64,000 nucleotides of DNA from Ignavibacteriota bacterium (GTDB lineage Bacteria; Bacteroidota; Ignavibacteria; UBA10030; CAVZMI01), in contig CAVZMI010000032.1 in the NCBI GenBank assembly GCA_963776275.1, forward strand, positions 1 to 64,000. The letters run 5' to 3'. The notes under the pieces were generated by a model. It worked only from the letters and a program-made list of their open reading frames with translations. It made no database searches and was not told where the DNA came from. The position numbers and the translations under genes are program-made. Shown here piece by piece: positions 1 to 18,773 of this stretch; within the stretch, counting starts at the first letter, position 1, and every line of letters begins with the position of its first letter.

Positions 1-246
1 CCGAACTACCCGAATCCATTTAACCCAAGCACGACGATACAATTTTCGCTCCCACACGCAACATATGTAAAATTAAATATTTACTCTTCCCTTGGACAAG
101 AAGTAGCTCAGCTTTTGTCAGAGAATATGAATGCCGGCACATATACGAAAGAATGGGATGCATCAAGTTTGTCGAGCGGTATTTATTACTGCAGGTTAGA
201 AGCCAGTGGTTTTATTAAAACAAAGAAGCTTGTTCTCTTACGATGA
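1..246 (+). CDS. 3' end of T9SS C-terminal sorting domain protein (cassette 0, partial)
   Basis: Frame 1 reads PNYPNPFNPSTTIQFSLP...SSGIYYCRLEASGFIKTKKLVLLR* with TGA at 244-246. Confidence 0.9.
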   Translation, partial: PNYPNPFNPSTTIQFSLPHATYVKLNIYSSLGQEVAQLLSENMNAGTYTKEWDASSLSSGIYYCRLEASGFIKTKKLVLLR

Positions 247-258
247 AAAGGCAACTGC

Positions 259-389
259 GCATAACAGCACGCATTACGACGTTCACTTTTTAAATAGAAT
301 TTTTAGAGTTCACTCCACCCCGTTGCTCGCGGGAGAATGAATCGTTCATAGCTCGCAACGGGGCGGCGTAATGCGTGCACACGTTAGTT
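259..389 (+). repeat. attC site
   Basis: R'' GCATAAC 259-265; arms GCACGCATTACG / CGTAATGCGTGC; R' GTTAGTT 383-389. Confidence 0.9.
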
Positions 390-428
390 GTAATTGCCCG
401 CAATAATTAAAAGCAAGGAGTTAAATTA

Positions 429-2506
429 ATGAAAAACATACAAATGATTTTAGTGATTACAGTTTCTATCATCTTTGCCATAAGACCCTTACCTGCTCAA
501 TGGGTACAAACGGACGGACCCTACGGCGGCAATATCCACTGTTTTGCTGTCTCGGGCACGAATCTTTTTGCCGGAACTTCTCGCGGTATTTTTCTTTCCA
601 CCAACAATGGTACGAGCTGGACAGAAGCCAATGCAGGTTTGACGAATACTTATATCAATTGTTTTGCAGTTTCAGGCACGAATATTTTTGCCGGATCTTC
701 GGGCGGCGGTGTTTTTATTTCCGACAACAATGGCGAAGGCTGGTCAGATGTTAATATAGGGTTGACGAATACTTATATCAATTGTCTTGCAGTTTCAGGC
801 ACGAATCTTTTTGCCGGAACTTATGGCGGTGTTTTTATTTCCACCAATAATGGTGACAGCTGGACAGAAGTCAATGCAGGGTTGACAAATACTAATGTCC
901 ATGCTCTTGCTGTCTCAGGAACAAAAATATTTGCCGGAACTTGGGGCGGAGGCGTTTTTCTTTCTACCAATAATGGTGACAGCTGGACAGAAGTCAATAC
1001 CGGATTGACGAATACTGAAGTCCATGCTCTTGCTGATACACGGAACAGAAATTTTTGCCGGAACCTATGGCGGTGTTTTTCTTTCCACCAACAATGGTAC
1101 AAGCTGGACAGAAGTCAATACAGGATTGACGGATACTTATTGTCAATTGTTTTGCTGTATCAGGAACAAATCTTTTTGCAGGAACTTGGTTCGGCGTTTT
1201 TCTATCCACCAACAACGGTACAAGCTGGACAGAAGTCAATACAGGATTGACGGATACTAATATTAATGCTCTTGCATGACTTCGGGAAAAATCTTTTTGC
1301 CGGAACTTGGTGGCGGCGTTTTTCTTTCCACCAACAATGGCACATAGCTGGAAAAAGGTCAATACCGGATTGACGAATACTATTGTCTATGCTCTTGCTG
1401 TCTCAGGAACGAATCTTTTTGCCGGAACTTGGGACGGAGGCGTTTTTCTTTCCACCAACAACGGTGACAAGCTGGACGGAAGTCAATAACGGGTTGACGA
1501 GCGACTTATGTTCTAATGCTCTTGCAGTCACTGGCACGAATCTCTTTGCCGGAACTGGCGGCGGCGTTTTTCTTTCCACCAACAATGGTGCAAGTTGGAC
1601 TGAAGTCAACACAGGCTTGACAGAACGAGGTCCATGGCTCTTGCGGTACATGGCACGAATCTTTTTGCCGGGACTGAAGGCGGTGTTTTTCTTTCGACCA
1701 ACAACGGTGCAAGCTGGACTGCAGTCAATACAGGCTTGACGGATACTATATAGTTTGGCTCTTGCTATGATCAGACACGAATCTCTTTGCCGGGACTACA
1801 AGTCACGGCGTCTTTCTTTCGACCAACAACGGCACAAGCTGGACTGAAGTCAATACAGGCTTGACGAGTACTTAAGTCCATGCTCTTGCCGTCTCAGGGA
1901 CAAAGATCTTTTGCCGGAACTTGGTCCGGCGGCGTCTTTCTTTCCACAAACAACGGTACAAGCTGGACTGAAGTCAATACAGGATTGACGGATACATATA
2001 TTGAATGTCTTGCAATCTCAGACACGAATCTCTTTGTAGGGACTCCGTATGACGGCGTTTTTCTTTCCACAAACAATGGTACAAGCTGGATAAATATCAA
2101 TACTGGATTACCGGAGACCAGTAATGTCGGTGCTCTTGTAGTCTCAGGAACAAATCTTTTTACCGGAACTTTAGGCAGCGGCGTGTGGAAGCGGCCGTTG
2201 ACAGAAATGATTACTTCCATAGCGTACTCAAACAGTATGCCCTCTAGATTCAATCTTGAACAAAACTACCCGAATCCGTTCAATCCATCGACGACCATCG
2301 TATTTAGTCTTCCGTTAAGAACATTCGTATCTCTGAAGGTCTTCGATGCTTTAGGTCGAGAGGCGGCGACTATTATTTCTGAAGAACTGTCTGCTGGCAC
2401 TTACTCACGTCAATGGAAGGCAAAAGGATTTCCAAGTGGTGTGTATTTCTATCGATTACAAGCTGGTTCCTTCATGGAGACAAGAAAATTAATTTTTGTT
2501 AAATAA
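429..2506 (+). CDS. Secreted BNR/Asp-box repeat beta-propeller protein with T9SS CTD (cassette 1); multiple frameshifts/stops in this sequence
   Basis: Signal peptide, about 14 repeats of ~40 aa (LAVSGTNLFAGTxGGVFLSTNNGTSWTEVNTGLT) spread over ORFs 429-1250, 1024-1260, 1307-1489, 1383-1739 and 1880-2506, then NYPNPFNPSTTI CTD. Confidence 0.8.
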
Positions 2507-2518
2507 ACGGGCAACTGC

Positions 2519-2544
2519 AACTAACAGGTGTAAAAAAGTTGGCG
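2519..2544 (+). repeat. Truncated attC remnant
   Basis: R'' AACTAAC 2519-2525 followed after only 12 nt by GTTGGCG 2538-2544; no hairpin body. Confidence 0.5.
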
Positions 2545-2589
2545 GTGTGGAGATCGGAAGGACATTGCGTCACTCACAGATGAGAGGGA

Positions 2590-3072
2590 ATGAGTAACCC
2601 AGTGAACCCAAGTGAAGGCCAGCGATTAGCCAAATTGGCCAGGGCTGTTCGCGAGTCCACCCTGAAGCGGCTCCTTCAAGTGCCACTTGGCAAGGAAAAC
2701 TGGTGTCCCTTGTCAGACATGATGACTTGCGCTGATATCGCTCATCATATTGGCGAGTCAGATCAATGGCTATTTGAGAAACTGAAAAACGCGGCATTGC
2801 CGAAGATGGTGGGCAAGTCTGGAGAAGCAGAGCATCTGAGCCCTGAAGGGTTCCAAGATCTTGTAACGAGGTTGAGAGAGTCCGGCGTGCAGCGTACTGA
2901 ACTCCTTTCAACTCTGACCGATTCATTTCTTAATTCGCCGATGTTCGATGATCGATTTGGTGATGTCACAGTCTGGTGGGTAATCGTTCGCGGGAATCTC
3001 GATCACGAGGCCCATCATCGCGGGCAGCTGGCGGTTTATCTAAGGATGCTGCGACATGAAATAGGAAGTTGA
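2590..3072 (+). CDS. DinB family protein (cassette 2)
   Basis: 160 aa; 'IAHHI' and C-terminal 'HEAHHRGQLAVYLRML' DinB metal-binding motif. Confidence 0.85.
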   Translation: MSNPVNPSEGQRLAKLARAVRESTLKRLLQVPLGKENWCPLSDMMTCADIAHHIGESDQWLFEKLKNAALPKMVGKSGEAEHLSPEGFQDLVTRLRESGVQRTELLSTLTDSFLNSPMFDDRFGDVTVWWVIVRGNLDHEAHHRGQLAVYLRMLRHEIGS

Positions 3073-3106
3073 GGTTTACAGATTGAACGAGTGCAACGCA
3101 ACGGGC

Positions 3107-3233
3107 GCATAACACGCAAAAACACGACGCTGGGAATGGCGTTAGAAATAAAGCCGCGCTCACTACTTTTACTCACATAAATTAGTCATTCATGGTTTGT
3201 AAAAGTAGTGCGTGTTTTTGCAGGACGTTATAC
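3107..3233 (+). repeat. attC site (family C)
   Basis: R'' GCATAAC 3107-3113; arms GCAAAAACACG / CGTGTTTTTGC; R' GTTATAC 3227-3233. Confidence 0.9.
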
Positions 3234-3336
3234 GCCATTGCGTTGCTACACTAATGAAATCCAGATACATTCCATGGCAGCTCTGGGTGCAGGTGGCGCA
3301 AACTTCAACTCAATCAACATATAGAAAGAGAAAGTT

Positions 3337-3840
3337 ATGAAAACAAATTTTTTCATGTCGTTGCTTTTGCTCCTTTTCTTCGGATGTACCAAGCAAGAAT
3401 CCGCTCAAATGACTCCTCAAGAGCAGGACAATGCGAAAAAGGAGATCCGAGCGATTGCCAACCAGATCCTTCATGGTGCTGAAAACATGGACGTTGAAGC
3501 AGTTAGTCAGCCGTACCTGAACTCCCCTGACTTCATACAAATTAACACCGATGGATCGATGGTTGATTTTCAAGGGCGCAAGAACGGTACCACCGAGTTC
3601 CTCAAATCTCTAGTCTCTCTGAAATTCACAACCATCAAGGACGAGTTCAGATTTCTTCCAGACAACATAGTACTCTACGCTTGGCTCGGCAAATGTGAAA
3701 TGACGCTCAAAACGGGCGAACACTTGAACATTGACTCGTATGCAGCAACCGATGTATTCACCAAGATGATCAACCAATGGAAAATCATTTACTCGCACGA
3801 GTCCGCATCGCCAGCGGTTCAGGAGAAACCTAAGAAATAG
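3337..3840 (+). CDS. NTF2-like/SnoaL-like (DUF4440-type) lipoprotein (cassette 3, ORF a)
   Basis: Lipobox FFGC; C-terminal 'QWKIIYSHES' typical of NTF2-like fold. Confidence 0.75.
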   Translation: MKTNFFMSLLLLLFFGCTKQESAQMTPQEQDNAKKEIRAIANQILHGAENMDVEAVSQPYLNSPDFIQINTDGSMVDFQGRKNGTTEFLKSLVSLKFTTIKDEFRFLPDNIVLYAWLGKCEMTLKTGEHLNIDSYAATDVFTKMINQWKIIYSHESASPAVQEKPKK

Positions 3841-3906
3841 GCACGCATTGAATCGATATATTCGACTCTCAGCGATGCAATCACTTATCACTCACAGGAG
3901 GTTTAC

Positions 3907-4440
3907 ATGAAAACAATTAGGTGCTTCGGTGCAATCATCGCTTGTTTGTTGCTCATTCTAATGACTTCATGTCAAGACCAACAGGCTAAAGAAGAACTGG
4001 CTAAATTCAAGCAGGGTGAATCATTAAAGGCAACCAATATTGAGCTTGCCAAAAAGTTCTACAAGTACCTTGATGCAGTGAATCTTGATTCTCTCAGAAT
4101 CATGTGTACTTCCGATGCAAAGATCTTCTACGAGTCCGGTGCCCCAATGTCTTTTGCCGATATGGAACCGCTTATAAAAACGTTTTACACATCCTTTCCA
4201 GACTACAAGCATGAGATTCAGGATCTTTTCGCTGCAGATGACAAAGTAGTTGCTCGAATTTCCTATACAGCTACCTTCGCCAAGAAATTCATGGATATCA
4301 AGCCAAATGGCGCCAAATTTACATACAAAGGTATCCAGATATTCCAGTTTGCCAATAACAAGGTATCAAACTTCTGGGGCGTTGAGGATGAATTGGGAAT
4401 GATGACACAACTAGGTATGGAGCTGAAGCTAAAGAAATAG
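3907..4440 (+). CDS. SnoaL-like ester cyclase family lipoprotein (cassette 3, ORF b)
   Basis: Lipobox MTSC; 'SFPDYKHEIQDLFAADDKVVAR...FMDIKPNG...DELGMMTQLG'. Confidence 0.85.
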   Translation: MKTIRCFGAIIACLLLILMTSCQDQQAKEELAKFKQGESLKATNIELAKKFYKYLDAVNLDSLRIMCTSDAKIFYESGAPMSFADMEPLIKTFYTSFPDYKHEIQDLFAADDKVVARISYTATFAKKFMDIKPNGAKFTYKGIQIFQFANNKVSNFWGVEDELGMMTQLGMELKLKK

Positions 4441-4497
4441 TCGCGTGCAAGTGTCTGCGTCCCAGTGTGTTCGATACCGGCACGCAACGCAACGAAC

Positions 4498-4629
4498 GCA
4501 TAACAAACGGCACAACGACGCTGGATAAAGTCATTGCCAATAAAAGCCTCGCTCAACACTTTTGCTTCACAGACAATTTGTCTATTTGTAGTTCGCAAAA
4601 GTGCTGCGTGTTGCCGCTGGACGTTATGC
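4498..4629 (+). repeat. attC site (family C)
   Basis: R'' GCATAAC 4498-4504; arms CGGCACAACG / CGTGTTGCCG; R' GTTATGC 4623-4629; body similar to 3107-3233. Confidence 0.88.
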
Positions 4630-4688
4630 GTCATGGCCGCCCGCTGTCTATAGTGGAGAGGATGGGGTGAAACGAGAAGGAGTATAAA

Positions 4689-5255
4689 GTGAAATCAATT
4701 GTTTTTACTTGTGTTCTCTGCATCATTTTGTTTGGGTGCAAACAACCCTCAGAGCCAACGTCATTGGTTCCATTGACTGCAGCGGCAAAATTTGTTGATG
4801 TTAACTCTTTTGCTATGTCCTACAAACAAGGAATAGCACTTGCGACGGTAACGAGTCACGATGTAAGCATTGAGGGGCTATCAGATAATTGGCAGTATTT
4901 ATATATAGACACTATCACAACAGTACTACCAAGAAGATACTATTTTCATGCTAATTCAAACGGTGTTGGATTTGATAGTAGTACTGCAATATTTGAGGGT
5001 CTTTATTTAATCACTCTTAGTTGGTTTGATAGCGACTCGGCTGTTTATATAGCTGAAAAGAATGGAGGGTCTCAATTTAGGAGTAATTATCCGAATTCTA
5101 CAATCGATGCTTTCCTTGGTGGGGCGGTTTTTCCCAAAACAGCGTCAGATTGGTATATAAGTTATAGTTATTTTTTGAATGACGGTCATGAGAAGTTTCT
5201 TATGTTAGTAATCGATGCTAACACGGGCGATGTAAAATCCAGAAGCACTGATTGA
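4689..5255 (+). CDS. Hypothetical lipoprotein (cassette 4)
   Basis: GTG start after AAGGAG; lipobox LFGC; PepSY-like 'VIDANTG' ending. Confidence 0.75.
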   Translation: MKSIVFTCVLCIILFGCKQPSEPTSLVPLTAAAKFVDVNSFAMSYKQGIALATVTSHDVSIEGLSDNWQYLYIDTITTVLPRRYYFHANSNGVGFDSSTAIFEGLYLITLSWFDSDSAVYIAEKNGGSQFRSNYPNSTIDAFLGGAVFPKTASDWYISYSYFLNDGHEKFLMLVIDANTGDVKSRSTD

Positions 5256-5289
5256 TCACTGCAAATATAAATTGCGGGCGGCCACGAAC

Positions 5290-5451
5290 GCATAACAACA
5301 CAAACTACGTCACTCACACATTTGCCAAGCGAAATAGAAATCGGGGTGATTATATTATTGTGTTCGTTACACCTCGCCCCGGGGCAAATATTAAATGAGT
5401 CATCTGCTAAATTACTGGGTCGAGGCGTCGTAGTTTGTGCAGACGTTAGTT
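5290..5451 (+). repeat. attC site (family B)
   Basis: R'' GCATAAC 5290-5296; arms CACAAACTACG / CGTAGTTTGTG; R' GTTAGTT 5445-5451. Confidence 0.9.
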
Positions 5452-5488
5452 GCAATTGCCCTTACCAAAAATCTAAAAGGAGGTTATT

Positions 5489-6811
5489 ATGAAAAATTGT
5501 TTGATCATGTTGGCGTCCTTGGTTTTATTCTTTACAGTTGGGAATGCCCAGCAAGGTTGGGTCTCGCAGACATCTCCGCTCGGCGCGCAAGGATATGGAG
5601 AGATTCAATTTGTGAGTCCGACTGAAGGATGGATTGTGGCAAGAAATGGACTGTTGATTCACACGACGAACTTCGGAGCGACATGGTCTGTCGATACTGC
5701 CTCTGGAACTGATACGGTCTTTGTCCTGAATGATCCGTCACGATCGATGAGTTTCGTTAATGACGTTACCGGGTGGATGATCGGTAGCTTGGGAAGCACC
5801 TCCGCATCGAAGGGGGCCATTCTTTACAATACTACGAACAGTGGAACATCGTGGAGCAAGCAATTGCTGGCTCCATGGTCAATGGGTTTGTTCGTTCAAT
5901 TTGTTGACGCTAACAATGGCTGGGCCGTTGTCGCGAATGGAACAGGGCTGAACAATATTGCCGGCGGTGCCGTACTTCATACAACCAATGGAGGTGCCAG
6001 CTGGGATTCACTCCCCGACCCTCCACAAGGCATAACATATTTCATTGACGCTAACAATGGCTGGAGCTTCGGCGGCGATACCATCAATTATGTTTGGCAC
6101 ACGACGAACGGCGGAACAAACTGGAGTAATCAAATTACCGATAGCTCAAGCGGTGGATTTAATGCCATGCAGTTCGTGGACGCCAACAATGGTTGGGTCG
6201 TAGGTGGCTCTGGAAAGATATTTCACACAACCAACGGCGGGACGAACTGGACACGAATTACCAACACTGGAAATAATTCCGGACACAAGGCTGTCTTCTT
6301 TCTCAATGCGGATGTCGGTTGGGTCGGAGGTCGTCAGTATGATGAGAACCAGGGTCAGGGAATCATCCTTCACACGACGGATGCAGGTGAATCGTGGACA
6401 ATTCAAAATACGCCGGCGCAAGAGGGCATTTTTAGCATCTATTTTATCGATGCCAACAATGGATGGCTGACAGGCGACCAAGGTGCCCTTGCTAAGACGA
6501 CGACGGGCGGATCGACATCTGTGCGAGAAAGTGGCTCTTCTTTACCGGGTCATTTTGACCTCATGCAGAATTATCCAAACCCATTCAATCCGTCAACGGT
6601 AATTAGCTATCAGCTTTCAACAGTCAGCAAAGTGACTCTGAAAGTCTATGATGTACTCGGAAGAGAAATTGAAACCCTGGTAGACGAACGCCAGAGTGTG
6701 GGAACTCATTCGGTTTCCTTCGACGCAAGCAACGTGCCGAGTGGAGTGTACTTCTACCAGTTGCAGGCTGGCGGTGCAGCTCAAACCAAGAAGCTTGTGG
6801 TGATCAAATGA
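5489..6811 (+). CDS. YCF48/Hcf136-like beta-propeller protein with T9SS CTD (cassette 5)
   Basis: Signal peptide; repeated FVDANNGW...HTTNGGxxW blades; NYPNPFNPSTVI CTD. Confidence 0.88.
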   Translation: MKNCLIMLASLVLFFTVGNAQQGWVSQTSPLGAQGYGEIQFVSPTEGWIVARNGLLIHTTNFGATWSVDTASGTDTVFVLNDPSRSMSFVNDVTGWMIGSLGSTSASKGAILYNTTNSGTSWSKQLLAPWSMGLFVQFVDANNGWAVVANGTGLNNIAGGAVLHTTNGGASWDSLPDPPQGITYFIDANNGWSFGGDTINYVWHTTNGGTNWSNQITDSSSGGFNAMQFVDANNGWVVGGSGKIFHTTNGGTNWTRITNTGNNSGHKAVFFLNADVGWVGGRQYDENQGQGIILHTTDAGESWTIQNTPAQEGIFSIYFIDANNGWLTGDQGALAKTTTGGSTSVRESGSSLPGHFDLMQNYPNPFNPSTVISYQLSTVSKVTLKVYDVLGREIETLVDERQSVGTHSVSFDASNVPSGVYFYQLQAGGAAQTKKLVVIK

Positions 6812-6823
6812 ACGGGCAACTGC

Positions 6824-6960
6824 AACTAACAACACAAACCACGACACTCACACATTTGTATATAATATAGAGTTCGTTCAACCCCGCACCGAGACAAATA
6901 TGAAATGAGTCATTTGCAAGGAATCGGTGCGGGACTGCGTAACCACGCCATACGTTATAT
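6824..6960 (+). repeat. attC site (family B, arms mismatched)
   Basis: R'' AACTAAC 6824-6830; R' GTTATAT 6954-6960; body shares CACACATTTG / AAATGAGTCATTTGC with 5290 and 7698 sites. Confidence 0.8.
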
Positions 6961-6998
6961 GACATTGAATATTTTTAGATTATTACAGGAGGTATATT

Positions 6999-7703
6999 AT
7001 GAACTTTGATCCTAAAGTTTTTGGAGAAGGTTTTCACAGATTTGTTCAAATGGAAATTGACATATTCGGAATTCCTTTAAGTATAATTTTTCATATCGCT
7101 ACATTGGTAATTTTGTATTTGGTTTTTAGATATGGAAATAAATACAGGAAATTGTTTGCCATATACTTTGCTTTTAACTGGTTTTTTCTTTTTGGCTATT
7201 GGGGTGTTTACGCTATGTTTTACTGGTCAAAAATAGGTATACCATATTTAGCTTCATTTATATTAACTCCTTTTTTGTTAGGTTTTATCGTCTTTTATTG
7301 GACAAAAGAAATTATCAATCCTAAATTCGACTTGGATTTTAAAGATGTAAAAGGATATAAATTCGTTGTCTTATTAATTATGATATGGGGATTCTGGTAT
7401 CCAACATATATTTATGGACAAGGTTTCATATTTTGTTTAAAGGATACTTTATTGTCAAATTATGGTTTGATGCCATGTCCGACAACAATGGTTATTCTTA
7501 GTCTTATGACATTAAATTATCCGAAAGGGAATAGATCACTTTTTAATTTATTCACAATCTATGCACTTTTTATAGGAACCGCGGTTGTTGCATCTGGATG
7601 GTTACCTGATATACCTTTTATTATTCTTGGGATATATTCACTATCCTTAATTTTGTATAATAAAGTGAGAGGGATCAAAGGCAAAAAAGTCAACGTCATA
7701 TAA
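6999..7703 (+). CDS. AT-rich multi-pass membrane protein, DUF6064-like (cassette 6)
   Basis: Several hydrophobic helices; 'GLMPCPTT' motif; stop codon lies inside the attC R'' box (ATATAAC), typical of cassettes. Confidence 0.65.
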   Translation: MNFDPKVFGEGFHRFVQMEIDIFGIPLSIIFHIATLVILYLVFRYGNKYRKLFAIYFAFNWFFLFGYWGVYAMFYWSKIGIPYLASFILTPFLLGFIVFYWTKEIINPKFDLDFKDVKGYKFVVLLIMIWGFWYPTYIYGQGFIFCLKDTLLSNYGLMPCPTTMVILSLMTLNYPKGNRSLFNLFTIYALFIGTAVVASGWLPDIPFIILGIYSLSLILYNKVRGIKGKKVNVI

Positions 7704-7857
7704 CAATACAAATTACGTCGTTCACTCATTTGCTAAGCTAAATAATACCGAAAAGATTATATTATTGTGTTCACTCAATCCCGCCACGGATCAAGTATTA
7801 AATGAGTCATTTGCTAATTACCGTGGCGGGCCTGCGTAATTTGTGTGAACGTTAAAC
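7698..7857 (+). repeat. attC site (family B)
   Basis: R'' ATATAAC 7698-7704; arms ACAAATTACG / CGTAATTTGT; R' GTTAAAC 7851-7857. Confidence 0.9.
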
Positions 7858-7929
7858 GAAATATCGCCCTATTGGGGTTGTGCCATCCTTGACTAATAAG
7901 TTATCTTTTATGTTGAAAGGAAGTCAATT

Positions 7930-8460
7930 ATGGAAGTTAAAACGGCACGAAGATTATTGAAGATTATTAAATTCTGTATCAAAAGAGTTTTTCCCGGTTT
8001 ATTAATTGCAATATCTATTTTTTGGTTCATACAACCTAAATGGAATTTCTTAAATATGCCTTATGATAGATTACTTGGGATTGCTTGGATTAGTATGGTG
8101 CCTCTTATAATTGCCCTTAATTTTTTTGAAGAGGTAGTAGAAGGAATAATCAGCAAGCGTAAACGTGGTCGATTTATTAAAGAAGAAGCTAACTGGTGGT
8201 GGGAACACCCTCGAGGGAAAAGAGTAATAATAACAGATAAAAATACCGGAGAAATAATTGGAGCAATAAAAAATGAACAGTTGAAATTTTTGATTGATGT
8301 TTTTACTAAAGAAGATATGGAAGAGAATGATTTTTGTTTTATAAACGAATTATTTGATATTTTTGTTGAAGAAAAGAAACCCGATCCATCCCTAATAGAA
8401 TTCATTCGGAATGCTTTAAAGGATAAAGACGAAATTATATTACATTGGGAAAAAGAATAA
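7930..8460 (+). CDS. Hypothetical membrane protein (cassette 7)
   Basis: 176 aa AT-rich ORF, two N-terminal hydrophobic segments. Confidence 0.7.
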   Translation: MEVKTARRLLKIIKFCIKRVFPGLLIAISIFWFIQPKWNFLNMPYDRLLGIAWISMVPLIIALNFFEEVVEGIISKRKRGRFIKEEANWWWEHPRGKRVIITDKNTGEIIGAIKNEQLKFLIDVFTKEDMEENDFCFINELFDIFVEEKKPDPSLIEFIRNALKDKDEIILHWEKE

Positions 8461-8488
8461 TAACCGTCCGTGGCACGGACGATACTTC

Positions 8489-8594
8489 GTTTAACACGCA
8501 AAATAACGATCCCGCCTCCCTTCGACGGGAATTGCCACAGGCAATTCCCGCTCAGGGCGGGCCGACGGGTCACTACTTTTGCGAACCGTTAGTT
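8489..8594 (+). repeat. attC site with nested palindromic insert
   Basis: R'' GTTTAAC 8489-8495; arms CGCAAAA / TTTTGCG; R' GTTAGTT 8588-8594. Confidence 0.85.
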
Positions 8595-8657
8595 GCAATT
8601 GCCCTTTAAACCATAAAAAAAACTGGCTTATTACTATTGCACAAAAGGAGAATTATT

Positions 8658-9933
8658 ATGAAACGATTGCATCTTCTGTTTTTCTTTATGGTCAGCACCT
8701 CGGCATTTGTTTATTCCCAGATTCCTTCCATTACTTCCTTTACGCCATTATCCGGGCCCATTGGCACAAGCGTTACTATCATCGGCACAAACTTCAGTCC
8801 AACGGCGGAGAATAACATAGTTTTTTTTGGTGCGGCGAGGGCTACGGTTACGTCATCCAGTTCGTCTTCGCTCACTGTGATGGTACCTGTTGGCGCAACT
8901 TACGCGTCTTTTACTGTCACTGTTGGTGGATTAACCGGTTATTCAGCCTATCCTTTTATAGTAACATTTGCTGGAGGGAGCATTTCATTCGATCCAAAGG
9001 TGGAATTTACAACAGGTTCCTGGCCAGCTAGCGTTCATATAAGTGATTTAGATGGAGATGGCAAGTCAGATCTGGTGACAACGAATTTTGGTGATTCTAA
9101 AGTTTCCGTGTTTCGGAATATAAGCTCTATCGGCAATATTACTAGCAGTTCTTTCGCCGCTAAAGTTGATTTTGAGACTGGCTTTGAGACCTGCCGGTTT
9201 AGATATAGATGATTTGGATGGAGACGGTAAGCTTGATCTAGTAATTGCAAATTGCGACAACAGAAGCTCTACAGTTTCTGTGTTTCGGAACACAAGCTCT
9301 AGTGACAGCTTTACGACCAGTTCTCTTGCCAGCAGGGTGGATTTTGCGGCAGGCGTTAGACCCGATGGTACCGCGATAGGTGATTTGGATGGAGACGGCA
9401 AGCCTGATGTGGTAGCTGCGAATGATAGGTCAAGAGATTCAGTTTCAATATTTCGGAATACGAGTTCCAGCGGAAATATTACGAGCAACTCGTTTGCTAC
9501 GAAGATGGATTTTACGACAGGTGTTAGACCCGATGGTGTTGCTATAGGTGATTTGGATGGAGATGGAAAACCTGATATTGTAACTGCGAACAACCTTAGC
9601 AATACAGTCTCCGTTCTTCGGAATAGCTCATCTTCAACCGGATTCAATTCTGATCAAAGCAAGATTCCTACTGTATATTCTCTCGATCAAAATTATCCCA
9701 ATCCCTTCAATCCGTCAACTAACATTTCATTCAGTATTCCGTCAAAATCGTTTGTGTCACTGAAAGTCTTTGATGCTTTAGGGAGAGAAGTGGCGGTACT
9801 TGTTTCCGAAGAGCTGCCCGCTGGAACATATTCACGCCAATGGAATGCAACGCAAATATCAAGTGGAGTGTATTTTTATCGTCTACAAGCTGACTCATTT
9901 ACAGAAACAAAGAAACTTGTATTACTGAGGTAA
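8658..9933 (+). CDS. IPT/TIG + FG-GAP repeat protein with T9SS CTD (cassette 8); frameshift near 9190
   Basis: 'PSITSFTPLSGPIGTSVTIIGTNF' (IPT), four 'DLDGDGKxD' repeats, NYPNPFNPST CTD; split over ORFs 8637-9212 and 9166-9933. Confidence 0.85.
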
Positions 9934-9938
9934 CGGGC

Positions 9939-10036
9939 CTGCACGCCGACCTGTTCGCCGGAGTTCGTTTTGTGAACGGAGGCGAAAGGGCTGCGTTTCG
10001 GCCCGCAGGCCTGCCTGCGTGCCTCCGGCAGGCAGG
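9939..10036 (+). repeat. REP-like palindromic insertion
   Basis: CCTGCACGCCGA...TCGGCCCGCAGG and CCTGCCTGC-N9-GCAGGCAGG hairpins, flanked by CGGGC direct repeats. Confidence 0.7.
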
Positions 10037-10047
10037 CGGGCAACTGC

Positions 10048-10152
10048 AACTAACAGCAACAAAAATGTAAAATGAACCATACCGTTTACCGCAAACGATA
10101 TTGTTCGATCATAGCGGCAAACGGTACGGCATTTTTGTTGCAAATGTTAGGC
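10048..10152 (+). repeat. attC site (family A)
   Basis: R'' AACTAAC 10048-10054; arms GCAACAAAAATG / CATTTTTGTTGC; R' GTTAGGC 10146-10152. Confidence 0.92.
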
Positions 10153-10183
10153 GAAATAAGCCCTTAATGAAAGGAAGTACACG

Positions 10184-11005
10184 ATGGATGAAAAGAGATA
10201 TGGCAATCAAAAGTGTTTCACCACTAAAGCAGGAGGAAGTCTGATGGTAAGGTTGTTATCGGTTGTTCTTTCCACGACGCTTATCGGGGCAATGCTTTAC
10301 AATCCGGTATCGGCCCAAAACCCCTGCGAGGAGATAGGCCCCGACTGCAGAGTGCTGACCTCAGCCGAGGTCAAGGCTTTCAAGGAACTGGTCCTGGCGG
10401 TGAAAGTCCTGCTGCCGGTGCCCGACACGGCCCGGTACGCGCCCGACGGCGCGATAGAGGCCAGCAATATGCCGTTCGTAGCCGAGACGAAGATCCCGGG
10501 CGGGGTGATCACGGGAGGGTCCTGGCAGGCAGGCTGTTTCCCTATCTATCCGAACAACAGCCTCCACTTCGGATACGACGCCAAGGCCGCGCAGGGAAAA
10601 CCAGCCGACAAGGCGAAGGACCCGCTGGCCGCCGTCCAGGCGGCGATGGCCGTTATGGAAAACAAGATCGAGTTAAGCGTCTGGCTCAGGCCGCACCCGT
10701 ACCTGGTGAACGTCGAGGACGGTAAGACCGTGCACGTGCGCGACCAAGACGCGTACAACATCGAGAAGAGCGCCGAATTCCTTTCGTGGCAGACCGGCGA
10801 TGATAATGTCACGCTCAATATGATCTTCGGGCCGCGCACCGTCAAAGAAGCGGAGACCCTGAACACGGATAAGCCGGCCCCCAAACTTGCGCCATTAAAA
10901 TCGATCGAGCTAGTCATCGGCGGTCCCAAGGACGAGGTGGCCGCTCTCAAAAAGAGGATCGACCGCCATGCGTTCGCAGCGCTGCTGGGCCCGGTGGTGA
11001 AGTGA
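10184..11005 (+). CDS. Hypothetical secreted protein, GC-rich (cassette 9); start may be the ATG at 10244
   Basis: 273 aa ORF with a signal-peptide-like segment; visibly more GC-rich than neighbouring cassettes. Confidence 0.75.
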   Translation: MDEKRYGNQKCFTTKAGGSLMVRLLSVVLSTTLIGAMLYNPVSAQNPCEEIGPDCRVLTSAEVKAFKELVLAVKVLLPVPDTARYAPDGAIEASNMPFVAETKIPGGVITGGSWQAGCFPIYPNNSLHFGYDAKAAQGKPADKAKDPLAAVQAAMAVMENKIELSVWLRPHPYLVNVEDGKTVHVRDQDAYNIEKSAEFLSWQTGDDNVTLNMIFGPRTVKEAETLNTDKPAPKLAPLKSIELVIGGPKDEVAALKKRIDRHAFAALLGPVVK

Positions 11006-11200
11006 GTAGCCTGCAAGAAAACCCGTTATCGATCACGGCACGTTAAGCAAGATCGTTATCCCGATCATACAGCATTTAAACAAGTTCTTTATTGGGTTGA
11101 AAAGAAAGAGGATGCCTGTCAATATCCGCACCCATTAATAAGTGCCCGAAATGCGGAGCAAATTTGAAACTCGAATAATTAAAATTTATAGGTTTACTTC

Positions 11201-11279
11201 GCCTAACACGGGCTTTTCGGCTCACTCCGTTCGCCCAAATCGGCTATCGCCGACTTCGCAAAGCCTGGAAACGATAAGC
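11201..11279 (+). repeat. attC site with mutated R' core (GAT instead of GTT)
   Basis: R'' GCCTAAC 11201-11207; arms GGGCTTT / AAAGCCT; R' GATAAGC 11273-11279. Confidence 0.75.
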
Positions 11280-11333
11280 ACAATGCCCCACAATCCACAA
11301 TTACCATCACATCTAACACGAAAGGACACGACT

Positions 11334-11831
11334 ATGAAAACGCTCTGCAACTTAACCGTCTTGACTGCTTGCTGCCTGGCACTTCTTCTGCCCGCCTGCA
11401 CACAGCAACAGCCCGACACTCGTGCAGCAGACGAGGCAGCAATTCGCGCGACCGATGTCGCATTTTCCAAGGCAGTCGAAGCCAAGCAACTGGACGCTGC
11501 GGTGGCGTTCTACGCTGACGATGCAGTGGTGATGTTTGTGAATGTTCCGATGCTCACCACTAAGGAAGCCATTCGCAAGGCGTTTGGGGAATTTTTGGTG
11601 ATGCCCGGCGTAGCGATGAAATGGCAGGTTACCAAAGTGGAAGCTGCACGCTCAGGGGATTTTGGCTATGCCGTTGGAACGTATGAAATAACAATGAACG
11701 ACTCTAAGGGCAAGCCAATCACGGACCACGGCAAGTATGCTACGGTGTATAAGAAACAGGCCGACGGAAGTTGGAAAGCTGTCGTCGATATTTCTAATAC
11801 CGATTTACCTGTAACACCACCGTCAAAATGA
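11334..11831 (+). CDS. DUF4440/SnoaL-like (NTF2 fold) lipoprotein (cassette 10)
   Basis: AAAGGA RBS; lipobox LPAC; 'SGDFGYAVGTY...DHGKYATVYKKQADGSWKAVVD'. Confidence 0.88.
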   Translation: MKTLCNLTVLTACCLALLLPACTQQQPDTRAADEAAIRATDVAFSKAVEAKQLDAAVAFYADDAVVMFVNVPMLTTKEAIRKAFGEFLVMPGVAMKWQVTKVEAARSGDFGYAVGTYEITMNDSKGKPITDHGKYATVYKKQADGSWKAVVDISNTDLPVTPPSK

Positions 11832-11844
11832 TATTGGGCACTGC

Positions 11845-12092
11845 GCTTAACAAGCGTGGTTACGTCGCCCGCCTGCCCGCCGTAGCACTTCGTGCTCAGG
11901 CGGGCCTTCTTCACGACCAATTTCGTCGTGACTCCGGCGGGTAGACTCACAGCCGGTGTAGGCGGGCTCAATACCGCACCGGGGCAAGTATTGAATAAAT
12001 CATTCGCCCCGGCCTCTCCCGACAAAGTCGGGATCGGCCGAGGGCGAGCAAGTTATCGTCGCGGGGTTGCGTGTCTTTTCGACACGTTAATT
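11845..12092 (+). repeat. Enlarged attC site (248 bp) with palindromic inserts
   Basis: R'' GCTTAAC 11845-11851; R' GTTAATT 12086-12092; family-B-like CCGGGGCAAGTATTGAATAAATCATT core. Confidence 0.75.
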
Positions 12093-12214
12093 GCCATGCT
12101 CTCACCTCCATTCGAGGGTGGTGGCATTGACGTTAGTTCAGTTACCAACGGGGTTGGGCAAATCGGGCTAAGTGAAATCTAATCAGCCCCAAGACTCTTA
12201 AAGGAGTTCCAACA

Positions 12215-12694
12215 ATGAAGAATTTGTTCACTACTATAATCGTGTTGCTCTCATGGTTCATTCTCTTATCTTGCAAGAAGGACGAGAGTAATCCCACCCA
12301 AAACCCCACGACGGGCAATGTTCAAGGTATAATAACTTATTCGGGTACTGGTACACCAAGCGCAACTAAACTTTTAGTTGTAGCAATCTATCTCTTCAGC
12401 AATACCAACATGCAAGGCTCGCCAAATGGCTCAACAATCCAAGGTAGTAGTTCGTCAACATCACCATTTTCGTACTCTTTTGCTGTGCCACCAGGAGACT
12501 ATCATCTTATTACTATGTTTGATGCGAATGGTGATAATAATTTTAATTCAGGCAATACTGATCCATATTTGATTTACACACCAAACAACGCAACAGGAAC
12601 CGGAACATTTGGCACAGCTACTGCTAAATTCACTGTTATTGAAGGTCAGACTTTTACTACAAATGTTTCATTCGGAGATACGTACAAGAAATGA
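12215..12694 (+). CDS. Hypothetical lipoprotein, DUF2141-like (cassette 11)
   Basis: Lipobox LLSC; 'PPGDYHLITMFDANGDNNFN'. Confidence 0.7.
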   Translation: MKNLFTTIIVLLSWFILLSCKKDESNPTQNPTTGNVQGIITYSGTGTPSATKLLVVAIYLFSNTNMQGSPNGSTIQGSSSSTSPFSYSFAVPPGDYHLITMFDANGDNNFNSGNTDPYLIYTPNNATGTGTFGTATAKFTVIEGQTFTTNVSFGDTYKK

Positions 12695-12751
12695 GGTTCA
12701 GGAACGAACGTTCCGCAGCGGTCATTCAGCAATCGATTATGAGAGCACGGC

Positions 12752-12856
12752 AGCTAACAGCAACAAAAATGTAAAATGAGCCATACCGTTTGCCGCAAAC
12801 GATATTGTTCGATCATAGCGGCAAACCGGACGGCATTTTTGTTGCACACGTTATGC
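12752..12856 (+). repeat. attC site (family A), near-identical to 10048-10152
   Basis: R'' AGCTAAC 12752-12758; same GCAACAAAAATG...CATTTTTGTTGC body; R' GTTATGC 12850-12856. Confidence 0.92.
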
Positions 12857-12969
12857 AAAATTGTCGGTTGCTAAGACACGAATTTTGGCTTTTGGGTGCA
12901 AGACAACAATCGCGCGTCCTGCACTCGGAGAAACAAAACAAACAGAACCACTAACAATGGAGGTATATA

Positions 12970-14100
12970 ATGGCAGATAAGAAAGCGGATCTGGCAGGGC
13001 CGGGCATCAGCACTTATGAAGAGGTGGATAAAATCCTTCCCCACAATTATAAGGCGTTGTTGGGTCCCAAGGAGAGGATGAAGGCACTCTACAAAATAAA
13101 AAATTTCATTGAAGAGAACCTGTGCAAGGAACTCAACCTTTTTATGGTTCAGGTTCCGCTCATCGTAACCAAGGACAGCGGTGTCAATGATTACCTTGAC
13201 CGGGATGGTTCACGCACGCCCATTGAATTTCCTTGCGGGCTCGGTCTTGAAAAGAGAATCGAGACTCAGGTGGTCCAGGCGGCCACAAAATGGAAACGGA
13301 TGGCCTTGAAGCAGTTCGGCTGTGAAGTGGGTGAAGGGATTTGTACCGATATGAGGGCAGTTAGAAAGGACTACTTCCTGGACCATGACCACAGCGCCTA
13401 TGTCGATCAATGGGATTGGGAACGGGTTATCACTAAGGATATGCGTAATCTGGAATTTCTGCGGGATGTCGTCGAGAGAATCTGGTCGGTTATCTATGAG
13501 GCCGGTCAGATGGTCAAGAAAGACTTCCCCGGACTCAATACCGATAAATATCCGGATATACCAAAAAAGTTGGAATTTTTTCACGCGGAGGAAATCCTGG
13601 AACGCTATCCGGACTTCACCCGCAAACAGCGAGAGACAAAAATGGTCCAGGAGGTGCATCCGGCGATCTTTATCATCGGAATCGGCTATGTCCTGGAAGA
13701 CGGTTATCCCCATGAGATGCGAGCTGCGGATTATGATGACTGGATCTCGCCAACGATTAAAAAGAACGGAAAGCAGTTCCATGGACTCAACGGCGATATC
13801 CTGGTCTGGAATCCGGTGACGAAGCGTCGTCATGAACTGACATCCATGGGTATCCGTGTGACTAAAGAAACCATGGTGCAGCAGCTCAAAGAGGCCGGAC
13901 AGGAACATTTTCTACAGTTGCCCTACCACCAGGCGATCCTCAATGACGAGATACCATTAAGTATTGGAGGCGGCATCGGTCAGTCACGTACATTTATGTA
14001 TCTGTTAAGGACCGCTCACATTGGCGAGGTAAGCACCACGGTCTGGCCTGATGCCCTCAAGTCGATTTGCAAAAGAAAAAATATCCATGTATTGGAATAA
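12970..14100 (+). CDS. asnA: Aspartate--ammonia ligase (asparagine synthetase A) (cassette 12)
   Basis: 'HSAYVDQWDWERVI', 'RAADYDDW', 'GLNGDILVWN', 'ELTSMGIRV', 'PLSIGGGIGQSR...HIGEV' AsnA motifs. Confidence 0.95.
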   Translation: MADKKADLAGPGISTYEEVDKILPHNYKALLGPKERMKALYKIKNFIEENLCKELNLFMVQVPLIVTKDSGVNDYLDRDGSRTPIEFPCGLGLEKRIETQVVQAATKWKRMALKQFGCEVGEGICTDMRAVRKDYFLDHDHSAYVDQWDWERVITKDMRNLEFLRDVVERIWSVIYEAGQMVKKDFPGLNTDKYPDIPKKLEFFHAEEILERYPDFTRKQRETKMVQEVHPAIFIIGIGYVLEDGYPHEMRAADYDDWISPTIKKNGKQFHGLNGDILVWNPVTKRRHELTSMGIRVTKETMVQQLKEAGQEHFLQLPYHQAILNDEIPLSIGGGIGQSRTFMYLLRTAHIGEVSTTVWPDALKSICKRKNIHVLE

Positions 14101-14208
14101 ATATTGAGAAAAATCAGATGTTCGTTTAATCCAGGTTCAACTGCTTAGCGAGATTCAGAAAAAGGAAGGACGGCTTTTTTCCGCAAAGGATTATATTTAT
14201 TTATATTT

Positions 14209-14240
14209 GACAACGGCATACATTTCGCGGAACGTTAGGC
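14209..14240 (+). repeat. Deleted attC: R'' and left arm missing, right end retained
   Basis: GACAAC (matches cassette-12 5' arm ATTGTC) abuts GGCATACATTTCGCGGAAC, then R' GTTAGGC 14234-14240. Confidence 0.65.
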
Positions 14241-14299
14241 GTCATGTGGCACAATAACCAGTAAACCGAATAATTTCAAGAATGATATAATACTATTGG

Positions 14300-15205
14300 A
14301 TGTCAGATATGGAAGAAGAAATCAAAGCAAAAAAAACATTACATCTATTTTGGCGAAAATTTGGATTTTCGCTTGTTCAGATAATCATTGGCATTGTCAT
14401 AGTGAATGTTCTGACATTCTTTGTTCGAAGTATCGCCCAGATAATTCTTTCCGCTTTATCGGTTGAACACTCAACCATCAGGTCAACAGTTGTTTTTGTC
14501 GTTCGGTCATTAACGGTCTACTATGGATATGCGTTGTTTGTGAGGATTTCCGAAAAAAGAAAAGCCGATGAAATCGCCATCGATCGAAAATCTCTGACTC
14601 AATTTTTATCAGGAAGCGCTTTGGGTATACTTTCAATTGGAGTTGTTGTGGCGGTACTGTGGATACTCGGATTTTTCTCAATCGTTGGTACAAACAATTC
14701 GCCTACAATTTATGAAGACATTATGTTCCATTCCTTTTTCGCATTCATACAAGATGTGGTGTTCATTGTGATACTCTTTAGGATTTTTGAACAGAGTTTG
14801 GGAACATGGTTTTCAATGGTTGTAGCTTCGGTAATCTTTGGTTTTCAGCATTTGCTGTACCCGGGACAAACTCTCTGGAGCGCTTCGACTCAGACTATAG
14901 AGGTAGGTATTCTCTTCTGTTCTCTATTTATCTTGACGCGTAGAATTTGGATCATCTTTGGCTTTCACTTCGTCTGGAATTTTATTCAATATGCGATAAT
15001 TGGTTTTCCCGCTATGGGACATTCTCGGCCACTTTTCTTGTGTAAATTCTTCGGTCCAGATATCATTACAGGTTATCCTGTCGGATTTGAAGCATCTTTG
15101 CTGACATTTATTATTGGAACAGGACTGGGATTATTTTTTCTTAGGAAGGTATTTGTCCTTAAAAATTTCATTGAGCCAAAGTGGAAAAAATGGCCACACG
15201 AGTGA
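14300..15205 (+). CDS. CPBP (CAAX/Abi) family intramembrane protein (cassette 13)
   Basis: Multi-TM; FGFQH and HFVWN motifs; first motif degenerate (QDVVFI instead of EExxxR). Confidence 0.8.
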   Translation: MSDMEEEIKAKKTLHLFWRKFGFSLVQIIIGIVIVNVLTFFVRSIAQIILSALSVEHSTIRSTVVFVVRSLTVYYGYALFVRISEKRKADEIAIDRKSLTQFLSGSALGILSIGVVVAVLWILGFFSIVGTNNSPTIYEDIMFHSFFAFIQDVVFIVILFRIFEQSLGTWFSMVVASVIFGFQHLLYPGQTLWSASTQTIEVGILFCSLFILTRRIWIIFGFHFVWNFIQYAIIGFPAMGHSRPLFLCKFFGPDIITGYPVGFEASLLTFIIGTGLGLFFLRKVFVLKNFIEPKWKKWPHE

Positions 15206-15274
15206 AAGATACATGCTAACCGTCGAATAGAATTTACTCCATATGCAATGCGAACAGATGCCAGGTGCCGCACA

Positions 15275-15311
15275 ACCTAATCAAATTTCTTGGAAAGCAG
15301 AGACGTTATAT
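15275..15311 (+). repeat. Degenerate terminal attC
   Basis: GTGCCGCACAACCTAAT imperfectly complements cassette-13 start GTTAGGCGTCATGTGGCAC; GTTATAT at 15305-15311. Confidence 0.5.
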
Positions 15312-15327
15312 CCACAGCGCGATTTTC

Positions 15328-16242: not shown

Positions 16243-16308
16243 CTGAAAGGGCTTACCCTCATTGTGTATAAGGAATATAGAGAAGCCTGGAATGAACTGC
16301 AAGAAGAC

Positions 16309-16337
16309 TTGCATTTTTTCCCGAAACTCGTTATCTT
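16309..16337 (+). promoter_or_regulatory. Putative sigma70-type promoter
   Basis: TTGCAT-N17-TATCTT. Confidence 0.5.
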
Positions 16338-16464
16338 CTTACAATTAGAGAGTATGGAAAGCGATTCATTTTTTATGCTTGCATTGTTAATGAATTACAG
16401 GGAATTACATTTTCCAAAACTTTTAATCAAAGCAACACCCGAAAATTTTCTCGAATAACATCAG

Positions 16465-16495
16465 GTGTCCCGACAAAATCGGGACACTTTTTTTT
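16465..16495 (+). terminator. Intrinsic terminator immediately upstream of the nif3 gene
   Basis: GTGTCCCGA-CAAAA-TCGGGACAC followed by T8. Confidence 0.75.
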
Positions 16496-16510
16496 CATAA
16501 ATGTACACAT

Positions 16511-17617: not shown

Positions 17618-17622
17618 AGGAG

Positions 17623-18360: not shown

Positions 18361-18773
18361 AACTCACTGCTTTTATCGACGGAGCTGCGCGCGGAAATCC
18401 GGGAAAGAGTGGAATCGGAATTGCAATTTTTGACGGCCAGGGTCGATGCCAGGCAGAGCACTTCGCATTTCTCGGAATCACGACGAATAATGTTGCCGAG
18501 TATTCTGCTCTGATCGCCTGTCTGCGTTTGGTGATGTCACGATTCGCACATTGCTCAGAGTTGTTGATCAATTCGGACAGCGAGTTGCTTGTACGGCAGA
18601 TGAATGGAGTATACCGGGTACGGAATAAAAAATTACAGCGATTTCACAGGGAGGTACGCCAATTGCTCGACAGTGCCCCCTTTCGATTTTCAATATCACA
18701 TATCCCCCGCGAACTGAATGCGAAAGCTGATTCACTCGCGAACCGGGGGATTGATGAACATCAAGTGTATTAA
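18357..18773 (+). CDS. rnhA: Ribonuclease HI
   Basis: 'DGAARGNPG', 'TNNVAEY', 'DSELLVRQM', 'NAKADSLAN'. Confidence 0.92.
   Translation: MKLTAFIDGAARGNPGKSGIGIAIFDGQGRCQAEHFAFLGITTNNVAEYSALIACLRLVMSRFAHCSELLINSDSELLVRQMNGVYRVRNKKLQRFHREVRQLLDSAPFRFSISHIPRELNAKADSLANRGIDEHQVY

Follow-up and report, generated by a model that had tools for sequence, protein, structure and literature searches.

The window analysed here is a stretch of 64,000 nucleotides (nt) that forms the first 64 kb of contig C32 (CAVZMI010000032.1) in the genome of an Ignavibacteriota bacterium (GCA_963776275.1, called G000 below), and its first 15,311 positions hold 14 cassette units with 15 genes on one strand, joined by attC-type sites that are conserved in structure and not in sequence. 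The reading preferred here, to which we give a probability of about 70%, is that of an integron-like array in which a recombinase without the insert specific to integron integrases moves the cassettes by way of their folded sites. The contig start cuts into the array, and because it lies inside, the array must extend beyond it; by comparison with other contigs, positions 1–15311 appear to be the distal two thirds of a chromosomal integron-like array that starts on contig C22. An earlier note, made from the letters of the window alone, had described an integron. The cassette array with attC-type sites stands, although no canonical integron integrase (IntI) was found in the genome and the recombinase of the array lacks the IntI-specific region. 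The array is probably a non-canonical variant of the integron, and we infer that it recombines.

The assembly of G000 comprises 38 contigs and 3.70 Mb and has been rated as 96.4% complete. Besides C32, its contigs C22 (locus L009) and C23 (locus L010) bear on the array, and comparison was made with G001, a congener from the same genus, and with other genomes of the order, including G002, whose contig C2 holds locus L121.

Recombination sites and the exchange of units

The intergenic stretches of the array end in RYYYAAC and GTTRRRY, and the sites within them are imperfect palindromes of 105–294 nt with the ends nnnTAAC-A and AC-GTTAnnn. These are the features by which attC sites are recognised, namely an R'' box (RYYYAAC), an R' box (GTTRRRY) and a structure that is kept as the sequence varies. 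In an alignment of 27 sites, eight from the window, ten from two other contigs of G000 and nine from one relative, the letters that never vary are TAAC-A (5' end) and (A)C-GTTA (3' end); compensatory changes occur in 14 of 19 stem pairs, 90.8% of the cells are paired, and neither any of 500 shuffles nor any slid register comes close to the pairing score. A covariance model built from aligned sites of this kind (R1), which is specific to the attC type of the window, returns nine matches in the 64-kb window at E ≤ 2.5e-5, all of them on the + strand and within 259–12856. Weaker rows are opposite-strand echoes of five of these nine sites (E 0.003 to 3.2) and scattered matches at E ≥ 3.3. The largest gap between R1 sites is 2.7 kb, within the spacing used for integrons (at least two sites sharing a strand, with gaps under 4 kb). 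A search of positions 1–20000 against Rfam found no attC family, its only match being a class A bacterial RNase P RNA at 18815–19290 (244 bits), just past the conserved flank of the array.

Folding of the bottom strand gave z-scores of −3.1 to −7.9 for eight of the R1 sites, and this strand is the more stable in 11 of the 12 distinct sites folded. The minimum-free-energy folds, which are predictions only, have a one-sided loop of 3 nt and lack single-base bulges around the R box; the predicted structure consists of a 1-by-4-nt asymmetric loop beside the R box and an unbroken L stem of at least 12 bp. The junctions comprise nine that score with R1, two atypical ones and three remnants; the earlier count of at least 14 cassettes agrees with the 14 units counted here, of whose junctions only 9 to 11 look functional. 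Site 11845–12138 is atypical and over-long at 294 nt, and site 11201–11281 has its R' mutated to GATAAGC (GAT for GTT), its counterpart in G001 reading GTTATGC. The remnants at 14135–14240 and 15305–15311 do not fold, and that at 2519 has R'' only. In the hybrid site 6824–6960 the L boxes and the 5' and 3' halves are not complementary, and the site looks like the product of homologous recombination between attC bodies. As to likenesses among the sites, the attC of Unit 12 is 91% identical to the attC at 10043–10157, and the centre of site 6824–6960 matches a core common to sites 5290–5451 and 7698–7857.

The units carry a further signature at their ends. Thirteen bases, running from the left flank of each R'' into the box itself, pair with the preceding R' and the bases that follow it at a mean of 8.3 of 13 positions, against 5.1 of 13 for the R' of the same site (p = 4e-5) and 5.3 of 13 for unrelated sites (p = 6e-7), and 10 or more positions pair in 13 of 30 pairs. 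Both halves of an extended R stem are thus carried by each inter-site unit, as expected of a unit that was once closed on itself.

Comparison with relatives shows how variable the content is. At the same locus, G001 is 96% identical to the window from the first T of the last GTTATAT (position 15306) onwards; upstream of that position the two have nothing in common. Cassettes 5, 7, 11, 12 and 13 are present in G001 at 85–95% identity on other contigs, and three of them stand in changed order on G001:C15. A gene order conserved in relatives had been named beforehand as a finding that would speak against the array; in G001 both order and content differ. Within G000, the recombinase gene and the first cassette of C22 and C23 are 94–99.5% identical, and the two contigs are identical through the ...ACGTTA of the first attC and unrelated beyond it.

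The homology between these sequences ends at the boxes of the sites. Breaks fall within R' at five junctions (in the C22/C23 pair, where the array ends, to the right of cassette 7 and to the left of cassettes 5 and 11). At three others, those that close cassettes 5, 11 and 13 on the right, the break comes directly after R'' (TAAC-A). Cassette 5 has an 85% copy in G001 with edges at R' and R'', cassette 7 a 92% copy that ends within R' (GTTA|) and cassette 11 a 95% copy that ends directly after R''; homology to cassette 13 stops after 14142, and its 94%-identical copy in G001 adjoins an attC. Another but genuine attC comes next to cassettes 5 and 11 in G001, and because cassette 11 itself is 95% identical, its different attC is best read as a replacement, not as drift. 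In the classical one-strand model of the integron, breaks are expected at R' only; breaks both in R' and after R'' suggest that both strands or both boxes are usable. Judged by these alignments, the units are mobile cassettes exchanged at G|TT, with the mobility that is asked of integron cassettes.

Reads of one public run, which contained 7% of the sampled words, were examined for excised circles and showed none, at a depth too low to decide either way; they assembled over positions 1–17000 into contigs of 151–233 nt only, several of them identical to the window and including part or all of attC 259–389 and attC 4498–4629 in the same arrangement. The sole joint in these reads, 820–951, lies within a tandem coding repeat. 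Positions 12140–12736, a lipoprotein cassette, also have 89% copies outside the detected arrays, at G000:C23:127666–128261 and on G001:C17, where the DNA after the copy has no attC.

The recombinase heading the array

No gene in the whole of G000 reaches the cut-off of the IntI profile TIGR02249 (265 bits), and the best matches to this profile are two nearly identical genes on C22 and C23 (96% identical). The C23 copy is intact (311 aa), and downstream of it, on its strand, lie 11 R1 matches, ten of them within 14 kb. After the C22 copy come an IS481, lying in the first cassette, then three attC sites and, reaching the contig end, a BNR-repeat gene. On G001:C5, some 6 kb separates the genes of the left flank of C22 from the lipid kinase that borders the array in the window, and this interval holds a 94-nt remnant of the recombinase 3' end; this arrangement therefore indicates that C22 continues into C32 and that the broken C22 copy heads the array of the window. 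The search upstream for an IntI and an attI that had been proposed thus leads to a co-oriented IntI-like recombinase and an attI-like site on C22, and to no IntI.

The insertion that interrupts the C22 copy occupies L009 10313–10618, exactly at the catalytic-tyrosine codon, and the new open reading frame (ORF) at L009 10352–10735 continues in frame into the last 38 codons of the recombinase. Similar small GIY-YIG genes are found at L009:3594–3887 and L096:2446–2790, and an IS110-like gene lies inside the C23 array (L010:2009–2911).

The best match of the recombinase in the PDB is VchIntIA (2A3V, E 1.5e-44), and residues 178–240 of the 2A3V chain (about 62) face only about 22 residues of the recombinase, a gap of about 40 residues. 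Correspondingly, the NCBIfam match to TIGR02249 reaches 237.7 bits and leaves profile positions 181–234 unmatched, and the XerA/integron model gives 219.8 bits against a cut-off of 220. The region that defines an integron integrase (intI_Cterm, the I2 helix) is missing from the enzyme. The I2 helix has been described as the innovation that enables integrases to process folded single-stranded attC sites (PMC7790495), and the standard detection tool requires the IntI-specific region (PMC4889954). The catalytic columns (R, K, H-x-x-R, H and Y) do not vary among 26 homologues, and the best protein matches are labelled Ignavibacteriales or Bacteroidota by their sources. In a quick tree, from which one fragment and one short row were left out, the insert-less recombinases and the IntI of the order form two distinct clades (support 99 each), neither of which includes the two Xer-like genes of G000. 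The latter lie on C6 and C11, and the array recombinase is not the housekeeping XerC/XerD pair. By these comparisons, the recombinase is nearest to integron integrases and is without their specific insert, the I2 helix region.

A short palindrome with a GTTAG site abuts the stop codon of the C22 recombinase, and a palindrome followed by GTTAGnn or GTTATAC is found within about 50 nt of the recombinase stop in six of nine loci; at the stop-codon site of L122, GAT stands in place of GTT. This palindrome with its GTTA looks like an attI-like first site. The insert-less enzyme stands at the head of an array with a site at its stop in the two loci of G000, in G002 (twice), in G005, G028, G038 and G072 and in the genome of L011.

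The association of enzyme and site type was followed through 121 genomes of the order, from which nine loci with canonical IntI and 11 with the insert-less recombinase were taken. R1 has 23 matches across these 20 loci, all of them downstream of, and on the same strand as, an insert-less recombinase; six of the seven insert-less loci with downstream DNA are positive, compared with none of the nine canonical loci. In the other four insert-less loci the contig ends within about 0.6 kb of the recombinase. L123, L124, L129 and L130, from four relatives, all stop within about 0.6 kb past the insert-less gene, as if such arrays break assemblies. Sites of another type, about 110–166 nt and mostly about 152 nt long with the ends GCCTAAC...GTTAGGC, are present in five of the nine canonical loci; wherever their side can be told, it is upstream of intI, and their predicted folds have single-base bulges. 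In L011, whose enzyme is 62% identical, 11 co-oriented R1 sites lie behind the recombinase. R1 had no match in 78 of 79 loci around more distant relatives of the recombinase; a simple pairing scan of the same loci pointed to co-oriented downstream sites in about 12 and to none upstream on the same strand, and is not used as evidence.

Cassette contents and the share of exported proteins

The large ORFs of 1–15205 are all on the + strand, the GC content per kb varies from 0.31 to 0.57 across the array, and five array proteins match no family in Pfam or NCBIfam. The units and the first gene beyond them are listed in Table 1.

Table 1. Cassette units of the array in the window and the adjoining conserved gene.
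Feature	Content	Positions	Strand	Support
Unit 1 (cut by contig start)	T9SS CTD tail 1–246; attC 259–389	1–383	+	TIGR04183 48.4 bits; R1 106 bits
Unit 2	BNR/Sortilin-like repeat protein that has a signal peptide and a T9SS CTD	384–2589	+	Pfam/NCBIfam matches
Unit 3	DinB_2 protein 2590–3072; attC 3107–3233	2590–3227	+	PF12867 42.8 bits; R1 103.4 bits
Unit 4	two SnoaL-like lipoproteins (3337–3840, 3907–4440); attC 4498–4629	3228–4623	+	Pfam; R1
Unit 5	lipoprotein without family 4689–5255; attC 5290–5451	4624–5445	+	ORF; R1
Unit 6	intact Ycf48/BNR-like T9SS cargo 5489–6811; hybrid attC 6824–6960	5446–6954	+	Pfam/NCBIfam; R1 32.5 bits
Unit 7	four-pass membrane protein 6999–7703; attC 7698–7857	6955–7851	+	ORF, hydropathy, R1
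Unit 8	two-pass membrane protein 7930–8460; attC 8489–8594	7852–8588	+	ORF, folding, R1
Unit 9	TIG + FG-GAP T9SS cargo; attC 10048–10152	8589–10146	+	Pfam/NCBIfam, folding, R1
Unit 10	GC-rich secreted protein without family 10184–11005; degenerate attC 11201–11281	10147–11275	+	GC 0.571; folding
Unit 11	DUF4440 lipoprotein ~11334–11831; long attC 11845–12138	11276–12132	+	Pfam, folding
Unit 12	lipoprotein 12215–12694; attC 12752–12856	12133–12850	+	ORF; R1
Unit 13	AsnA-like aspartate-ammonia ligase 12970–14100; remnant junction	12851–14234	+	PF03590 267 bits
Unit 14	Rce1/CPBP-like membrane protease 14300–15205; terminal R' GTTATAT 15305–15311	14235–15305	+	Pfam
First conserved flanking gene, outside the array	YegS-type lipid kinase	15328–16314	-	TIGR00147 160.8 bits
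T9SS, type IX secretion system; CTD, C-terminal domain.

Four proteins carry a type IX secretion system (T9SS) C-terminal domain, as had been predicted: the ORFs ending at 246, 2506, 6811 and 9933 score 48.4, 41.2, 51.8 and 47.5 bits with TIGR04183 (cut-off 23), and PF18962 is above its cut-off in the same four. Signal-like N-termini are present in the genes that start at 429, 5489 and 8637, the N-terminus of the first gene lying off the contig, and the host genome encodes PorU (962 bits) and has 120 matches to the T9SS C-terminal domain; a C-terminal domain, a signal-like N-terminus and a T9SS host together identify type A cargo. The five predicted lipoboxes are likewise borne out, a hydrophobic run followed by [GAS]C being found in the ORFs at 3337, 3907, 4689, ~11334 and 12215; these calls were read from the translations, and the heuristic flags four of the five, the listed ORF of the fifth starting 64 codons early. 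The ORF at 10184 has a signal-like N-terminus, those at 6999, 7930 and 14300 encode multi-pass membrane proteins, and the cytoplasmic products are DinB_2 (2590) and AsnA (12970).

By a crude in-house hydropathy rule, not SignalP, 13 of the 15 array products are envelope proteins, compared with 37.4% of 3133 genome ORFs under the same rule (p = 1.3e-4), in line with the earlier remark that most of the other products are membrane or secreted proteins. Lipobox-like N-termini are found in 5 of 15 against 5.1% (p = 7e-4), and the tally of TIGR04183 that had been suggested gives 4 of 15 T9SS C-terminal domains in the array against 119 of 3133 genome-wide (p = 2e-3). The bias extends to other arrays: 28 of 44 genes beside R1 sites elsewhere in G000 and in six relatives encode envelope proteins (p = 5e-4 against the same 37.4%), and across all arrays 8 of 54 genes beside attC carry a T9SS C-terminal domain, again against 119 of 3133 (p = 0.001). 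Five of these eight cases lie outside the window, in G000, G028 and G072, and a further one in G038 is just under the cut-off. The secretome bias is real and general for this type of array. The idea of a lineage-restricted cassette pool is a reasonable one: at least three genomes of the order hold T9SS cassettes in arrays of this type, and the host has PorU.

Exported proteins have been reported before as enriched in cassettes, with signal peptides in 16.1% against 6.8% (PMC10661359). The content had been called unlike that of usual cassettes; this was overstated, since the difference lies in degree, the share of 13 of 15 being far higher than in that report, and in the route of secretion, with T9SS and lipobox signals, and the enrichment of signal peptides as such was already published. 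No T9SS cargo cassettes were found described in the literature searched. Toxin-antitoxin and resistance families are absent from the Pfam and NCBIfam matches of the 19 ORF pieces, as the earlier note had seen; a match of TcdB_toxin_midN to the FG-GAP repeats of 9166–9933 (17.3 bits against 24.8) is below threshold and was not taken as a toxin. Defence-like genes do occur in other arrays of this type. In L010, 9756–12492, one cassette consists of a Dcm methylase, a 335-aa partner and Vsr, a restriction-modification set, and elsewhere an LA2681-type HEPN protein (L133:2798–4174) and a KaiC-like ATPase (L134:3383–4738) occur.

The gene of Unit 2 (429–2506), which contains 13 copies of a coding repeat of about 123 nt, is broken into three frames (429–1250, 1383–1739 and 1880–2506), and the unit ends in a remnant of R'' only (2519–2525); the gene of Unit 9 (8637–9933) lies in two frames, 8637–9212 and 9166–9933. 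No junction was found in the 66-nt gap between the two genes of Unit 4. The AsnA-like gene of Unit 13, normally a housekeeping gene, stands here in a cassette-like unit; it scores 284.2 bits with TIGR00669, under the equivalog cut-off of 292.8, and its remnant junction has an R''-like box at 14135–14141 and an R' at 14234–14240. The GTTATAT at 15305–15311 is the end of the variable region, and the lipid kinase beyond it adjoins the array in G001 as well. Outside the attC arrays, four further T9SS C-terminal domain matches cluster at 43151–49540 of the window.

Competing explanations and significance

Close to the array among known systems are the sedentary chromosomal integrons of the "inverted integrase" group, such as those of Treponema (PMC4889954), with which it shares promoter-less single-gene cassettes on one strand, RYYYAAC/GTTRRRY palindromes, a G|TT crossover, a co-oriented recombinase at the head and variable content. 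It differs from them in a recombinase whose IntI-specific region is short of about 40 residues and whose score falls below the TIGR02249 cut-off, and in sites with a 1-by-4-nt loop, an unbroken L stem and no bulges in the predicted folds, at which homology also breaks after R''. With at least nine attC-type sites and no integrase, the window has what defines a cluster of attC sites lacking an integron integrase (CALIN; PMC4889954), and the rule of IntegronFinder would presumably file it there. Unlike a CALIN, it has on the adjoining contig a specific recombinase family at its head, a pairing that recurs in other genomes, and the label "lacking an integrase" may reflect the definition used. The canonical integrons of the same order share host lineage and general logic with the array, whereas their intI has the specific region, their arrays lie upstream of intI, and their bulged GCCTAAC...GTTAGGC sites of about 152 nt are not seen by R1. 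Complete integrons have been reported in Chlorobi, Ignavibacteriae and Salinibacter with IntegronFinder 2.0 (PMC9024848).

In the reading preferred here, the insert-less recombinase would recombine folded sites at their R boxes, and cassettes would be excised, captured and reordered. Use of both strands or both boxes would allow ORF modules and attC bodies to be exchanged separately. Because the C22 recombinase is interrupted at its catalytic tyrosine, present-day movement in the array of the window would need the C23 copy, which is intact and 96% identical, to act in trans.

Several observations weigh against this reading. The interruption on C22 is a 306-bp insertion with a GIY-YIG ORF, an IS481-family element sits in the first cassette (L009 11219–12363), three of the junctions are reduced to remnants and the GTT of another is mutated, and the public run shows no joint at any attC, at a depth too thin to tell. 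L127, an insert-less locus with downstream sequence, has no R1 match, and its recombinase ORF is 147 aa long. The presence of canonical IntI above cut-off in 50 of the 121 genomes makes past action in trans conceivable. Deep nodes of the recombinase tree are unresolved, and a 2016 survey judged that 50 recombinases next to attC sites, all without the specific region, are not IntI (PMC4889954). As to the cargo, of the four T9SS genes three are either incomplete or frameshifted, which leaves one intact as assembled; the frameshifted genes are rich in repeats, and assembly error in tandem repeats is possible. The envelope calls depend on the crude rule given above.

An ordinary CALIN, built by a canonical IntI since lost or left unassembled and with the insert-less recombinase as a mere neighbour, would fit the classical RYYYAAC/GTTRRRY ends of the sites, the 38 contigs and 96.4% completeness of the assembly and the frequency of canonical IntI in the order (TIGR02249, about 296–487 bits, including G002 of the same family). 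It is nevertheless unlikely, given that G000 has no IntI above cut-off, that no canonical locus of the nine has the attC type of the window, those loci carrying instead their own bulged sites upstream of intI, and that the insert-less enzyme is repeatedly found at the array head with a conserved site at its stop codon. Another view, for which the chances seem slim, holds that site-specific recombination belongs to the past and that the array is a fossil, now fixed and decaying. The broken recombinase, the IS481, the remnant junctions, the mutated GTT, the hybrid attC and the frameshifted cargo are what such decay would leave, and the public run, uninformative as its depth is, has no joints. 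Yet the recombinase on C23 is intact and followed by 11 R1 matches on its strand, nine sites of the window still fold and score well, and wholly different content between congeners whose flanks are 96% identical points to turnover that is recent on that scale.

The recombinase might also be the passenger integrase of an attC-targeting IS91-type element and not the array's own. In G002, a second, 42%-identical recombinase and a Y2 transposase do stand directly behind the array recombinase; G000, G028 and the genome of L011, however, have no match to Y2_Tnp (PF04986), and a clade of its own, with long branches, unites the proteobacterial relatives L056, L063 and L065 (support 100). This origin is very improbable, and identity with an IS91 passenger was rejected for G000, where no Y2 (HUH) transposase is adjacent. 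The IS91-type element of G002 occupies L121 10131–12000, where the first recombination site would be expected. Hardly credible is a view of the hairpins as repetitive extragenic palindromic (REP)-like or terminator repeats between ordinary genes, with no cassettes at all: the sites are indeed intergenic palindromes after stop codons, but their sequence varies as the pairing is kept, units have changed locus between congeners, the breaks falling at the TAAC/GTTA boxes, GC content shifts along the array as described, and the sites are tied to a recombinase.

The integron-like reading, with movement by the insert-less enzyme, leads to a wider proposal that is tentative and, in our estimate, rather less likely to hold than to fail. 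Ignavibacteria and others may possess a second integron lineage, older than or parallel to the known one, whose integrase never had the I2 helix and which is marked by bulge-free attC sites, lax strand choice, crossovers at R' and R'' and modules shuffled independently; in T9SS hosts it would serve as an exchange pool for surface and secreted proteins. The insert-less clade heads arrays of up to at least 11 attC-type sites in several genomes, and canonical integrons with another attC type occur in the same order. In the literature searched, which did not take in Supplementary Figure S1 of PMC4889954, a tree with 21 such recombinases that may be relevant, no description of attC arrays headed by insert-less recombinases was found.

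If the insert-less enzyme recombines, many arrays filed as integrase-less would have an integrase, and a natural enzyme would be at hand for testing the evolution of hairpin recombination out of Xer-like ones. If the cassettes are expressed, the array may have an adaptive role as a store and shuffler of surface and secreted proteins usable only by T9SS hosts. T9SS C-terminal domains and lipoboxes tie the cassettes to one host group, and the cargo points to cell-surface variation, not resistance, as the trade of such arrays in environmental bacteria of the Bacteroidota group.

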